This document shows positions 7,075 through 11,016 of a stretch of DNA of 32,000 bases, one piece after another. The stretch is from Candidatus Heimdallarchaeota archaeon (GTDB lineage: Archaea; Asgardarchaeota; Heimdallarchaeia; Heimdallarchaeales; Heimdallarchaeaceae): positions 28,330 through 60,329 of the forward strand of contig DAOVER010000018.1 of the NCBI GenBank assembly GCA_030668875.1. The letters are read 5' to 3'. A model generated the notes under the pieces. That model made no database searches. It saw nothing but the letters and a program-made list of their open reading frames with translations, and was not told where the DNA came from. The position numbers were made by a program, and so were the translations under genes. Each line of letters opens with the position of its first letter. Within the stretch, counting starts at the first letter, position 1.

Positions 7075-7803
7075 CTATAAATCCTTAACTATCTTGAGTA
7101 TACTTTTAACCAGAAGATACGATCCGCACACGAGTAAAGCTACGTCTACATAAGCACCAAGCAGGATAATGCCGAAAAATCCAAAATAAACTGTCAAACC
7201 TCCTACAAATGTTGTTAGCATGAGTGGTTTTGGTTTCTTTGCAAGTATCAATACAGCTGTTATCATGACCAATGTAGGACAATTTACCCCTCCTAAAGGA
7301 GAGTAAAGAAGAGCATTCAAAGCTATTGGCGCATCAACCCAATGTAGGTACCAGAAACCAATGATTAATCCAATGCTAGAAAATATCCAATCAATAATCT
7401 TAGCATTCTCTAAATCAACTTTTAATTTCTTTGATACAAATGCAATAAGGATTAGAGTTGTTATGACCCCAAAGAAGAGGATATTTGGTATCACTACATA
7501 AACACTTGAAACAATTGTGCTAGATAGTGAAAGAATAAGGACTATTGCAAAAAAGATCTGATCCCTGTATCTTTTCCATACAATTCCTGTTACAAGAAGA
7601 AGAAATATTGCTATGTGCATTGCAAGAAAATAGTACTTCAATTGACTACTGATTGTCGTAAGAGTGCTTGTTATTTGTTCAGGAGTCCTCATAAATGTCA
7701 TAATTACTACTAACAACAAAGCTAATCCCAGTAAGCTCCACGCAAGTATACTTCTCCAATTAGACTTCACTTCGTTTTTATTTTTCAAATCTACCGTAGT
7801 CAA
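7075..7803 (-). CDS. Multi-TM membrane protein (SPLGGVNCPT motif, loosely DUF6064-like); 5' end probably separated by the IS607 insertion
   Basis: About 8 hydrophobic segments, only a TTG start with no clear RBS. An orphan RBS plus ATG lies on the other side of the IS (10529). Confidence 0.65.
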   Translation of the reverse strand: MTTVDLKNKNEVKSNWRSILAWSLLGLALLLVVIMTFMRTPEQITSTLTTISSQLKYYFLAMHIAIFLLLVTGIVWKRYRDQIFFAIVLILSLSSTIVSSVYVVIPNILFFGVITTLILIAFVSKKLKVDLENAKIIDWIFSSIGLIIGFWYLHWVDAPIALNALLYSPLGGVNCPTLVMITAVLILAKKPKPLMLTTFVGGLTVYFGFFGIILLGAYVDVALLVCGSYLLVKSILKIVKDL

Positions 7804-7835
7804 CTGAAGAGTAAAAACTTACCCAATCTTGTTGT

Positions 7836-7869
7836 GAGGAAAAAGGGGAGGAAGAATTTAGAGGAAAAA
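7836..7869 (+). repeat. Three 9-bp direct repeats at the IS left end (putative TnpA binding sites)
   Basis: GAGGAAAAA (7836-7844), GAGGAAGAA (7848-7856), GAGGAAAAA (7861-7869). IS607-family ends are known to carry short direct repeats bound by the recombinase. Confidence 0.55.
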
Positions 7870-7884
7870 TAAGAAAGAGAGCAT

Positions 7885-8475
7885 ATGTTAGTGAGAATAG
7901 GGATAGCGGCAAAGTTACAAGGAGTGTCAGCTAGTACGTTAAGACGATGGGAAAAGGAAGAAAAGTTATTACCAGAGAGAAGAACAAGAGGAGGACATAG
8001 AAGATATATACTTGTGCAAGCGATGAATGGAGAAAAAGAGAAAGGAGAAGGAAGGCAAAAGAAAATAGTGCTTGGATATGCGAGAGTAAGTGCAGCGAAG
8101 CAAAGAAAAGAATTGCAGAACCAGAAAGAACAAATGCAAAAGTTTGTTGAACAACAAGGGTGGAAGATGGGAAAAATGTTTGCTGATATTGCTTCAGGGA
8201 TGAACGAACAACGAAAAGGTTTACAGAATCTATTGAATGAAGTGGCAACAACTAGCCCTTTTGCAGTCATCTGCACCTATGAAGATAGATTGGCAAGGTT
8301 TGGAACAAAAGTGATCAAACACTATTGCCAAACATTCTCAACAAACATCATTGCTATGCATAAGGAATTACAAACTACCAAGGAAGAAAAACTGATAGAA
8401 GATATGATCGCCTTGGTAACCTCCTTTGCAGGAAGATTACACAGGCAAAGGAGAGGGAAAACTCCTCCTAACTGA
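7885..8475 (+). CDS. tnpA: IS607-family serine transposase/recombinase
   Basis: N-terminal MerR-like HTH (AAKLQGVSASTLRRWEKE, RTRGGHRRY), then a serine recombinase core (GYARVS with catalytic Ser, DIASG, YEDRLARFG, EDMIALVTSFAGRLH). Confidence 0.96.
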   Translation: MLVRIGIAAKLQGVSASTLRRWEKEEKLLPERRTRGGHRRYILVQAMNGEKEKGEGRQKKIVLGYARVSAAKQRKELQNQKEQMQKFVEQQGWKMGKMFADIASGMNEQRKGLQNLLNEVATTSPFAVICTYEDRLARFGTKVIKHYCQTFSTNIIAMHKELQTTKEEKLIEDMIALVTSFAGRLHRQRRGKTPPN

Positions 8476-8514
8476 GTTTTCTTCGCGTTTATATACCATT
8501 CTGTGGATAAGTAG

Positions 8515-10431
8515 GTGAAGACAATGGTCTCACAAGTAATAAAGAAAGCACAAGTAGCTATCAACCCTCACTCAAAGACGGCGATGCGAAGCTACCAGGT
8601 GGCGTTAAAATGTGTAGACCAGCAACAACGGGAAGAGATCAACCGAAGGATAAGAAAACTAGAAGAACAACAACACCTCCTTCTTTCTCCGCAAATAGTA
8701 AAGAGGGCTGAAACGTTGTTCGGAACCAACCCTAAGGAAGGGTTCTTCACACGCCAACTATGCAAAGAAGTGGGGAAGAGTCCTAACATAGCAGAAAGTG
8801 CTTTCCATTGGTTGCATATAGCAATCAAAGGGAAAAGAGATAAGGAACAGAAAGTGCAAGGGTTGCTAAACTTTCTCCTTAAAAATCCTCAACAACTTGT
8901 AGAATGGATGATCTTTGGTAGATCACCTTATGCTGAAAGCAGTTTAGGGAACTATTGGAAACTTAAAAGAAGGTACGTTATCAACCTCTTAACCAGCACT
9001 AGACAACAAGCAGATGGATATTGGAGAAAGAAAAAGAAAGTAATTTATGGTTCCAACCATTTACAATTCAATTCTTTCCTCACCTCTACAACACAACAAG
9101 CTATAGTACAAGCGATAGATGATGTCTTGTTCTTTTACACTAATGCTTTTACTGCTATTCCCCAAATAACTACTAGACAACAAGCTTTTCTAGCCAAACT
9201 TAAACTATTAAAGAACGAACAAGCTGTCGTTGTTCCCTTTCTCACCTCGTGGATCAACAGCCCTCACCTTTCTCGTTGGAAAAGTCTCAAAATATTAGCA
9301 GAACAACTAGCAAAAACTCTTGGGAAGCCTTCCCGAAAACTCTTTTCAGCTGTAAGGCTGATAATTGTTTTCACACTCTTTGACCATTTCATGCAGAGTG
9401 CCCCTCAGTTAGCTAAAGGTCTCCCAGTAGCAAAAGTTGTTCCATTACCATTTAAACAGAAAAAGAAAGGAAGATTACCCATAAAATTGTTAATGAAAAA
9501 AGATTATGTTATCACCCGACAAGGGAATGCGAAAACACTAACAGCACAAATTAGAAAGCAAGGATGGACCGAACTAGGTTTTCCCCAAAAAGGGAAGAAG
9601 AAACTTGTTGCAAAAACACTTTTCCCCTCTAAAGTACGAGAGTATATCCATAATGGTGCAGAGATTAAACTTTTCCAAGTTAGCAGCGGTCAAGCACCTA
9701 ATTACAAACCTCGAGTGGATGTAGTGCTCGAGGGAGCAATGGACTGTTTCCACTCCTCTACCCTTCTCCACACCTATCTCCCGCTTATATCAGGTCAGAA
9801 GAAAGCTATTCTGGGTCTAGATATCAATCGCTTAGGAGTACATATGGTGGCATTCAATACTTCTGTTTCTCTCCCTCCAGACATCTTGCTTCTAGCAGAA
9901 CGTTATACTCATCTCAGCAACAAAGTTCTCCCTGAACTTCATCGGGGGTTGATGCGCAAACGTAAAGCGCGAGACAATCTTGGATTCTGTAAGTTGCAGG
10001 GAGAGCTCAATAGAGTTTATACTCGTCGCATGCGAATCATTCGCGAACTTACTCGTCTTCTCCCCCACCTTCTTGCTGCAGTCATGGTGAAGAAACAGTG
10101 TAAGACCTTGAAGATTGAGCAGTTAACTGTTGACCCTTCAGGTACTAAAGGGGCTTTAGCTAAAGCAATATACACCATGCCTGATAGTCTCTTTATTTAC
10201 CGGAAAGCTGTCTGGTTAGCTTCTCAAGAGTTAGGTTATCAAGTGCAATTAGAATCTGTTTCCCCCTATCATACCAGTACTGTTCATTATGGTTGTGGAG
10301 GAAAGCTTGTTCGCAACCAAAGTCAATATGATCTTGCCCCTTGCAGAAAATGCGGACAAAGAGTTAACACTCATACTAATGCTGCGCACAATATCGCTTC
10401 TCTGTCTGGTACGCTCCTTCCTTCTTTATAA
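8515..10431 (+). CDS. tnpB: Large TnpB-like RNA-guided RuvC protein (likely start ATG 8524 after GGTGA RBS)
   Basis: RuvC-I ILGLDIN (D436), RuvC-II LKIEQL (E535), SPYHTS, zinc finger HYGC...CRKC, RuvC-III NTHTNAAHNI (H620 at the usual Asp position). Lies directly downstream of IS607 tnpA. Confidence 0.88.
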   Translation: MKTMVSQVIKKAQVAINPHSKTAMRSYQVALKCVDQQQREEINRRIRKLEEQQHLLLSPQIVKRAETLFGTNPKEGFFTRQLCKEVGKSPNIAESAFHWLHIAIKGKRDKEQKVQGLLNFLLKNPQQLVEWMIFGRSPYAESSLGNYWKLKRRYVINLLTSTRQQADGYWRKKKKVIYGSNHLQFNSFLTSTTQQAIVQAIDDVLFFYTNAFTAIPQITTRQQAFLAKLKLLKNEQAVVVPFLTSWINSPHLSRWKSLKILAEQLAKTLGKPSRKLFSAVRLIIVFTLFDHFMQSAPQLAKGLPVAKVVPLPFKQKKKGRLPIKLLMKKDYVITRQGNAKTLTAQIRKQGWTELGFPQKGKKKLVAKTLFPSKVREYIHNGAEIKLFQVSSGQAPNYKPRVDVVLEGAMDCFHSSTLLHTYLPLISGQKKAILGLDINRLGVHMVAFNTSVSLPPDILLLAERYTHLSNKVLPELHRGLMRKRKARDNLGFCKLQGELNRVYTRRMRIIRELTRLLPHLLAAVMVKKQCKTLKIEQLTVDPSGTKGALAKAIYTMPDSLFIYRKAVWLASQELGYQVQLESVSPYHTSTVHYGCGGKLVRNQSQYDLAPCRKCGQRVNTHTNAAHNIASLSGTLLPSL

Positions 10432-10523
10432 TCCTCTTCCCCTCAACGCACGTGAGGGGACCCACTTAAACGACGGTTAGACCGCCTCTGGCAAGTTTGA
10501 CCAAGTTTCATAACGTGCGTGTT
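10432..10523 (+). ncRNA. Putative omegaRNA/reRNA scaffold (may begin within the tnpB 3' end); guide predicted from ~10524
   Basis: Perfect 8-bp stem TCCCCTCA/TGAGGGGA (10438-10460). Its loop ACGCACG is exactly complementary to CGTGCGT (10514-10520). Further stems: CGGT-TAG-ACCG (10474-10484) and TTAAAC/GTTTGA. Confidence 0.6.
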
Positions 10524-10540
10524 ATTCATATTATTCACCT
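10521..10540 (-). other. Orphan RBS + start codon, probable severed 5' end of the 7075-7803 gene
   Basis: Minus strand reads AGGTGAATAAT-ATG-AAT-AAC (ATG at 10529) and runs straight into the IS right end. Confidence 0.55.
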
Positions 10541-10564
10541 TTCAAATTCATTACTACTATAAGC

Positions 10565-10583
10565 GTATAAGTAATTACTTATA
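10565..10583. promoter_or_regulatory. Putative ArsR operator overlapping a TATA box
   Basis: Perfect 18-bp palindrome TATAAGTAATTACTTATA (10566-10583), with a 17/18 copy at 11023-11040. Confidence 0.75.
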
Positions 10584-10647
10584 TATGTATTTCTTAATCT
10601 GCATCCCATTTTGATTCATGTTTTCTTAATAACATTAAATTGATTTA

Positions 10648-11016
10648 CTAGCTGGAGACTTCCTCACAATCATCTCTAAATGGACATTCCTCACACTGTC
10701 CTCCTTGAGCACATCTCGTAAAAGCAAAATCATACATCTTATCTACAAGTTTTTTCTGTTTTCTGAACTCAACAAGATTCAGGAAATAGTATATCTTTGG
10801 TCTTTCTTTTTTTGAATAGAGGATATTAACATTCTTTAGAACTTTCAGGTGTTGTGAGATGGCGGGTTGTGATACACCTAATTTGGCTGCTAAATCAACT
10901 ACGCACAATTTTTCTTCCATGTTGGACGCAAGTAACCTTATCAATCTCAACCTTGTAGGATCCGCTAACGCTTTGAAAACCTCTGAAATCTCATGTATAT
11001 CCTTCTTCATTGACAT
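10648..11016 (-). CDS. ArsR/SmtB-family regulator with C-terminal CX5CX2CX5C motif
   Basis: VFKALADPTRLRLI, KLCVVDLA, VSQPAISQHLKVLK, IYYFL, then CAQGGQCEECPFRDDC. Confidence 0.93.
   Translation of the reverse strand: MSMKKDIHEISEVFKALADPTRLRLIRLLASNMEEKLCVVDLAAKLGVSQPAISQHLKVLKNVNILYSKKERPKIYYFLNLVEFRKQKKLVDKMYDFAFTRCAQGGQCEECPFRDDCEEVSS

Follow-up and report, generated by a model that had tools for sequence, protein, structure and literature searches.

Among described TnpB proteins, one major clade (RIIIr-4) has the RuvC-III aspartate replaced by histidine, lacks the C4 zinc finger, is predicted to be active and includes archaeal members linked to MazE/RHH genes (Altae-Tran 2023, PMC10691335); two further branches specific to archaea, RIIIr-6 and Ser-6, are named in the same work, along with two Asgard groups linked to Cas1. 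Typical IS607 elements present GG ends and G-rich target-adjacent motifs (TAMs) such as AGGAG or GAGGG, Fanzor2 proteins have been attributed to a cyanobacterial IS607 lineage, and the Fanzor hallmark is a RuvC-II glutamate shifted to six residues before the zinc finger (PMC13565253). TldRs, for their part, are described as domesticated, nuclease-dead, RNA-guided transcription factors (PMC10705468). Here we analyze a 32,000-nt stretch of a Candidatus Heimdallarchaeota archaeon genome (GCA_030668875.1, contig DAOVER010000018.1, positions 28,330-60,329 of the forward strand; hereafter the window, to which all coordinates refer), which carries an IS607-type element composed of a tnpA gene and an unusually long tnpB gene whose product presents a histidine, His620, in place of the third catalytic carboxylate of the RuvC site.

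The tnpB gene (8515..10431, plus strand) encodes 638 residues when read from a GTG codon, and the features that a preliminary description had read from the bare sequence are all present in its translation: a continuous 638-codon frame, some 430 residues ahead of RuvC-I, the RuvC motifs GLDINR (D436), KIEQL (E535) and NTHTNAAHNI (618-627), and a zinc ribbon formed by HYGC (591-594) and CRKC (610-613). On the plus strand, the codons of Asp436 and Glu535 lie at 9820..9822 and 10117..10119, the zinc ribbon (HxxC...CxxC, with ligands H591, C594, C610 and C613 and including R600) at 10285..10353, and the CAT codon of His620 at 10372..10374. A TATA box (TTTATATA, 8488..8495, plus strand), belonging to the promoter of tnpB and its omega-RNA, would place the transcription start near 8518, which makes the ATG at 8524 a likelier start than the GTG; the protein would then probably be 635 residues long, with residue numbers 3 lower than those used here. 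A database copy (P0003) is identical to this 635-residue version.

When the family profile was compared with the protein chains in the PDB, the segment kvnTHaNAAkNIA aligned with kvnADyNAArNIA of Cas12f and TnpB. The pairing of THxNAA with ADxNAA therefore places His620 in the column of the canonical catalytic aspartate, so that D436 and E535 of the D-E-D triad usual for TnpB are present and the third position is occupied by histidine. Conventional domain models barely recognize the protein: in a Pfam and NCBIfam scan only the C-terminal TNB region was matched, below cut-offs, the PF07282 match spanning residues 575-627 with 24.8 bits against a cut-off of 26.3.

To place His620 in its evolutionary context, we compiled 121 relatives through a word-indexed search. 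Nearly all of them are 620-650 residues long, and all source names that identify an organism correspond to Heimdallarchaeota or Heimdallarchaeaceae. The Asgard-like host suspected beforehand is thus borne out, related loci deriving almost exclusively from Heimdallarchaeota metagenome-assembled genomes (MAGs). In an alignment of 64 of these relatives, sharing 38-90% identity, D436, E535, H591, C594, C610 and R600 are invariant, C613 is present in 63 sequences and position 620 is histidine in 62; of the two sequences that differ, one has a scrambled tail. When 1.84 billion cluster representatives were searched with the profile, 278 hits were obtained, about 100 of which are informative at the motif region; the pattern D-E / H-C-C-C / N-T-H-x-N-A appears in nearly all informative representatives that cover it, over protein lengths of roughly 330 to 1784 residues, and a few representatives have a glutamine in this region. 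No relative was found in the viral contigs scanned.

Comparison of tnpB with seven homologues gives ratios of nonsynonymous to synonymous substitution rates (dN/dS) of 0.09-0.19, and the differences from a 91%-identical second copy on contig C87 of the same genome distribute as 42, 35 and 110 over the three codon positions, indicating that the protein is under purifying selection. Given this low dN/dS and the conservation of both the histidine and the H-C-C-C finger across homologues and the wider family, these sequence comparisons identify both as old traits under selection, and His620 as a feature that is ancestral to, and under selection in, a large lineage centred on Asgard archaea. The same data bear on the possibility that the element is dying and that the histidine inactivates its protein as a mutation private to this copy. 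Apart from the unusual residue, nothing speaks for such decay, and the near-universal histidine of the 64-sequence alignment and of the wider family, the intact frame, the low dN/dS and the polymorphism of the insertion within its population (see below) refute it, leaving this explanation with a negligible probability.

Several variants of this core were observed in the wider family. A sister set (P0227, P0228, P0231, P0237, P0241, P0245, P0253, P0256 and P0264) presents the pattern D-D / C-C-C-C / N-R-H-N-A, that is, an aspartate at RuvC-II and a normal C4 finger, with the histidine kept at RuvC-III. Giant relatives of 1227-1784 residues (P0146, P0158, P0178, P0186 and P0187), from Hodarchaeales and Odinarchaeota, carry the D-E-H/HCCC core at their C-terminus. 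Ten representatives were looked up, and the six that have source names come from Heimdall, Hermod, Hodarchaeales, Odin and Hel archaea. The window's own genome also contains about 25 sites (e.g. C94:42529, C58:52751 and C59:3927) with TnpB genes of about 360-425 residues that score above the PF07282 cut-off, so the His-type family coexists with a large population of ordinary-sized TnpB.

By its clade-wide replacement of the RuvC-III aspartate with histidine and its archaeal members, the family fits the published description of RIIIr-4, although RIIIr-6 or Ser-6 could be its true home. As for the C4 motif that RIIIr-4 lacks, the first ligand here is a histidine, which leaves no C4 motif, but a four-ligand finger (HCCC) is kept; the text describing RIIIr-4 is silent on what replaces C4. 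The reported MazE link finds an echo in the giant relative P0178, whose source name is that of an AbrB/PrlF-type antitoxin. In contrast, the present subfamily is about 640 residues long, IS607-borne and mobile, and shows no fixed toxin-antitoxin-like pair. The preliminary description is thus not supported on one point: a major TnpB clade with this aspartate-to-histidine change and no C4 finger, RIIIr-4, had already been described (PMC10691335). A characterised activity for it was not found in the literature.

We then compared a structural prediction of TnpB with solved structures. The AlphaFold2 (AF2) model is confident, with a predicted local distance difference test (pLDDT) score of 87.8, and comprises a WED strand (22-32), an all-helical REC lobe (36-308), a WED sheet (323-408) and a RuvC domain with the zinc ribbon (432-638). 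The three RuvC positions take their canonical places in the topology of this model: D436 and E535 close the strands 432-437 and 531-535, respectively, and H620 is at the start of the last helix. The predicted WED-REC-RuvC architecture, with the zinc ribbon (TNB) as an insertion, can be aligned, over residues 22-635, with structures of TnpB and Cas12f at Z scores of 12-13.4: AsCas12f (8dzj; Z 13.4, 355 residues aligned) is the top match, followed by ISFba1 TnpB (8iaz; Z 13.1, 339 residues aligned), CnCas12f1 (8hr5; Z 12.6) and ISDra2 TnpB (Z 12.1). A profile search of PDB sequences likewise gives Cas12f as the best match (E 2e-7), with TnpB, Cas12m and LaTranC also matched. The additional size of the protein corresponds to a REC lobe of about 270-290 residues. 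This insertion, whose structure had been proposed for prediction, was folded alone as residues 33-322 with a pLDDT of 92.8 and compared with 48,161 PDB representatives; the best Z score, 6.4, is within the noise expected for helical proteins, and the REC expansion can therefore be assigned to no solved fold.

These comparisons set the protein apart from its known relatives in different ways. It shares with Cas12f (8dzj, 8hr5) the best profile and structural matches, and its N-x-[D/H]-x-N-A-A motif resembles the NADxN type of derived TnpB and Cas12f; unlike Cas12f, it is encoded on a transposon together with tnpA and without a CRISPR array in the window, and has histidine for aspartate. The ISFba1-type IS607 TnpB (8iaz; PMC11061315) is alike in its fold, its upstream serine-recombinase tnpA, the lack of inverted ends and a 3' guide RNA stopping at the right end, but it is about 390 residues long, with a D-E-D triad and a C4 finger, and the present REC lobe is larger by about 170 residues. 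A special relationship to Fanzors, a question that the preliminary description had raised in view of the probable Asgard-like host, is not upheld. The two share an IS607-type ancestry and a general TnpB fold, but the RuvC-II glutamate shift is absent here: H591 follows 56 residues after E535, which is invariant and canonically placed, and position 585 varies among Y, F, R, H, Q, A, K and W. The structural match to mimivirus Fanzor2 (ApmFz2, 9b0l; Z 10.3) is weaker than those to Cas12f and TnpB, no Fanzor is among the PDB profile matches at E <= 1, and the present host is archaeal.

The tnpB gene lies in an element with an intact tnpA (7885..8475, plus strand), which encodes an IS607-family serine recombinase of 196 residues with an N-terminal MerR-type helix-turn-helix (HTH) domain. 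The product matches positions 3-185 of the 187 in NF033518 (163.8 bits, cut-off 110; E 3e-48) as well as PF00239 (Resolvase) and PF00376 (MerR), and presents the catalytic serine motif YARVS. Copies of the element in the same genome, found on contigs C48, C87, C37 and C12 in addition to fragments, align from 7793 to 10520. On the right, conservation over 49 related loci drops sharply after 10520; on the left, conservation over 23 loci begins with A-C-[C/T]-G-T-N5-ACTG. The left junction of this copy reads ACCGT (7793..7797, plus strand), which comprises a candidate target motif or TAM (AC-Y) and a GT core common with the right end. The non-coding left end upstream of tnpA (7796..7884, plus strand) continues with N5-ACTG and a conserved AAAACTTA..CAATCTT block. 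Among 53 distinct left ends, the junction reads ACCGT in 32, ACTGT in 6 and ACAGT in 1, with no bias further upstream. The right end reads ...GCGT (TGCGT) and shares the dinucleotide GT with the ACYGT left junction, as opposed to the GG ends and insertion of typical IS607 elements, which defines a variant IS607 end type; the difference between TGCGT and ACYGT is compatible with TAM-based discrimination of self. We looked for terminal inverted repeats of the element and found none.

Evidence of mobility was obtained from Logan contigs of two runs (X1 and X3) of the marine-sediment study in which this sequence is best represented. In these contigs, position 7794 is joined to 10519 with a single A between them and no other mismatch occurs over flanks of 495 and 275 nt. 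The empty allele reads tctAC-A-GTgttattc and the occupied one tctAC-C-GT[element]GTgttattc, so that the two differ by the element and one base alone, and there is no target-site duplication. These contigs are an empty-site allele present in the same population. In the simplest model, crossover would take place at the GT dinucleotide of an AC-N-GT site, yielding an element of about 2.72 kb. Crossovers at an AC core or a CG core were also considered, and their fit to the empty-site junctions was worse than, or no better than, that of the GT core. We searched 17 genomes of the same genus with a query that included the flanks; all of them gave a match, and at least 11 have long matches inside the element; in three congeneric genomes the flanks are adjacent and the element is absent, at a divergence too large to fix the crossover base. 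No CRISPR-like array, or array-like tandem repeat of any kind, was detected anywhere in the 32-kb window. The proposal that this large TnpB lineage resides in an autonomous IS607-type element with an intact tnpA and without a CRISPR array is hence corroborated, and the region from about 7796 to 10520 is an autonomous IS607-type insertion sequence that has been recently mobile. The insertion is placed between a membrane-protein gene (7075-7803) and an ArsR-type HTH gene with a Cys-rich C-terminal tail (10648-11016, minus strand), which lies about 130 nt past the right end and is convergent with tnpB.

The 86 nt that follow the stop codon (10435..10520, plus strand), comprising the right end and the 3' module of the putative omega-RNA scaffold, are the most conserved part of the element, with 26 copies at 91-100% identity in the same genome and a metagenome depth about 100 times that of the flanks. 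We analyzed covariation in an alignment of 44 distinct sequences against 500 shuffles. The resulting consensus structure is composed of a hairpin (10438-10445 / 10453-10460), two nested helices (10468-10471/10505-10508 and 10475-10481/10496-10502) with an apical stem (10485-10486/10490-10491), and a pseudoknot in which the hairpin loop (10447-10452) pairs with the final bases of the scaffold (10514-10519). In this structure 96.7% of alignment cells are paired, 10 pairs are changed on both sides compared to 3.2 in the shuffles (none of the 500 reaching the observed value), and the pairing collapses upon sliding the 3' partners. The pseudoknot presents 13 compensatory cells (CG-to-UA five times and GC-to-AU eight times) and no broken ones, and the pairing of hairpin loop and tail also covaries in subfamilies of 38-47% identity. 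The structure emerged from the alignment alone: a single-sequence fold of 10300-10520 was no better than shuffles (z -0.79), and an Rfam search of 7700-10800 at permissive thresholds returned no family, RAGATH-18 included.

These patterns point to a structured guide RNA at the 3' end of tnpB that terminates at the transposon right end, as in other TnpB systems. From the boundary between scaffold and guide, and from how TnpB omega-RNAs are built (PMC10278001), the first 20 nt or so outside the element (10521..10540, plus strand) would be the guide equivalent. In most homologues the protein tail ...FPSTHVRG corresponds to the omega-RNA hairpin read in frame (10416-10460 in the window). The stop codon precedes the hairpin in this copy and its closest relatives, where the hairpin falls in another frame, and the tail is therefore conserved as RNA and not as protein.

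The conservation of this module extends to many derivatives of the element. A large tnpB precedes just 4-6 of the 26 copies of the right end, and 18 belong to miniature elements of 365-401 bp (e.g. G000:C83 at about 33.6 kb, C29 at about 51.9 kb, C13 at about 24.2 kb and C95 at about 100.7 kb). The miniatures consist of the left end (ACNGT-N5-ACTG...), a 40-nt block, a segment of about 190 nt with homology to the 3' part of tnpB, and the 86-nt module. The 40-nt block is identical in layout to 8477-8516, which holds the tnpB TATA box and start region, and sits directly upstream of the guide-RNA region, and the miniatures look like promoter-plus-guide-RNA parasites that would borrow TnpB and TnpA in trans. 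Other derivatives have lost most of tnpA (joints 7898-8454 and 7902-8462) or the 3' end of tnpB (10239-10434 missing), and in one (G000:C15:30712-31483) tnpB is deleted and the 86-nt module directly follows the left end and a complete tnpA of 85% identity. At related loci, tnpA is likewise full, reduced to a C-terminal remnant or missing.

More distant paralogues show a different genomic setting. The same genome encodes a single-copy paralogue of 646 residues (L102:2473-4413, equivalent to G000:C95:33990-35909) that is 39% identical, keeps D-E-H and has no tnpA; its relatives (L065, L067, L069, L070, L073 and L084) come from Heimdall, Thor and 'Promethearchaeati' MAGs. The gene is always convergent to a tRNA-Cys gene located about 45-75 nt past an omega-RNA-like scaffold, and the position corresponding to the guide shows partial conservation and a resemblance to the D-arm region of tRNA-Cys in antisense (GCATnGCCnCTTTGCTAA). 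This paralogue may have been immobilised or exapted, or may descend from an ancient insertion into a tRNA gene. A second tnpA-less subgroup (L062, L064 and L074, with matches starting at about 3047 or 4001) is found about 90 nt downstream of tRNA-Asn in three MAGs.

Taken together, these data are best explained if the protein is a homing nuclease that is guided by RNA and uses a D-E-H RuvC site, a reading that we consider probable on genomic grounds. In the proposed mechanism, the TnpA serine recombinase would mediate both excision and insertion at a short AC-Y-GT site, with GT as the apparent point of crossover. The promoter between tnpA and tnpB would drive tnpB, and the 3' part of the transcript would fold into the omega-RNA, whose scaffold (a hairpin, two nested helices and a pseudoknot right before the guide) would end at the last base of the element, with the next 20 nt or so of flanking DNA acting as guide. 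The TnpB protein of 635 or 638 residues is expected to bind this omega-RNA and, most likely, to cut the vacated donor site, which would carry the motif and a match to the guide, and recombination would then restore the element. The element with its ends, polymorphism and recent mobility, the RNA structure and the residue conservation are observed here, and RNA binding, the TAM and DNA cleavage are inferred. A homing role of this kind has been shown for other TnpBs. His620 would most likely act as the third metal ligand in a D436-E535-H620 site, and RNase H-fold nucleases with histidine in the last position, such as the DEDH site of Argonaute, are active.

The preliminary description had posed an alternative between an active nuclease and a nuclease-dead, RNA-guided DNA binder, and the genomic evidence leans towards activity. 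In the second case, the change from aspartate to histidine would abolish cleavage, and the protein would mark or protect the donor site or repress a neighbouring gene, much as TldR or Cas12m and Cas12k do. The missing third carboxylate is consistent with this proposal, and so is the distant tnpA-less paralogue subfamily, which looks immobilised at its fixed tRNA-adjacent loci and indicates that the lineage can be exapted. Dead TnpB derivatives often lose their C-terminus too, and those described so far lose several catalytic residues, whereas here D, E, H, the zinc ligands and R600 are near invariant. TldRs are immobile and have fixed guides against promoters; they resemble the present protein as TnpB derivatives with a non-canonical RuvC site, but this gene is mobile and keeps D, E and the whole C-terminus. 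Moreover, together with tnpA it forms a transposon that is polymorphic and present in several copies, and in such a setting TnpB acts as a homing nuclease; its guide is whatever flanks each copy, leaving no fixed regulatory target. Cases of inactivated TnpB have been published (PMC10691335 and PMC10705468), and we regard a dead binder as an unlikely alternative. An active nuclease is favoured because a binder need not keep D, E, H, the zinc ligands and the TNB arginine invariant, because the gene behaves as a thriving transposon partner, and because histidine is accepted as last ligand in other RNase H-fold nucleases.

Several observations weigh against an active homing nuclease. Histidine is a poorer Mg2+ ligand than aspartate, and those TnpB and Cas12 enzymes that have been tested require the RuvC-III aspartate, so that the protein could be weakly active, shifted in its metal dependence or inactive. 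The candidate TAM derives from junction statistics, and our literature search found no cleavage, binding or expression data for the His-type lineage, nor any paper testing a His-type TnpB. Furthermore, the one-base difference between the occupied (ACC-GT) and empty (ACA-GT) sites at position 7795 could be a strain single-nucleotide polymorphism, a target-motif variant that escapes re-targeting, or a footprint.

A further reading is a D-E-H site that works with altered catalysis, as a nickase, as a strongly Mn- or Co-dependent enzyme, or mainly as an RNase that trims its own transcript into omega-RNA. The activity of the Argonaute DEDH site is compatible with such a shift. TnpB uses its RuvC site to process its own mRNA into omega-RNA (PMC10278001), and 'altered substrate specificities' have been suggested for rearranged sites (PMC10691335). 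However, no sequence feature separates this possibility from ordinary double-strand cleavage, and homing requires a recombination-stimulating break; we regard altered catalysis as improbable, somewhat more so than a dead binder. For the ordinary homing nuclease, it is also relevant that clades with a conserved RuvC-III aspartate-to-histidine change have been judged likely to be active (PMC10691335).

More speculatively, the D-E-H site and H-C-C-C finger might together constitute a working RNA-guided DNA nuclease with a chemistry unlike that of all characterised TnpB and Cas12 enzymes, be it in metal preference, pH dependence or nicking. Asgard archaea would then have kept it in two forms: a mobile one, comprising the element and its guide-RNA-only parasites of about 400 bp, and a fixed, tRNA-Cys-linked one perhaps recruited for a host function. 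We advance this broader proposal tentatively.

The clade-level trait has already been published, and the element is a well-preserved member of a described His-variant lineage and not a new kind of system; it does not inform the question of how Fanzors, or the RNA-guided nucleases of eukaryotes, arose. Its value is that of a well-defined test case rather than of a discovery of kind, since it offers as test substrate an intact autonomous copy, a defined boundary between scaffold and guide, a candidate 5-nt TAM and an exact empty site. Engineering of TnpB, Cas12 and Cas9 takes the third RuvC carboxylate to be indispensable, and a large natural lineage that has histidine in its place, under strong selection and still transposon-like, is a ready experiment on how far the RuvC metal centre can vary.

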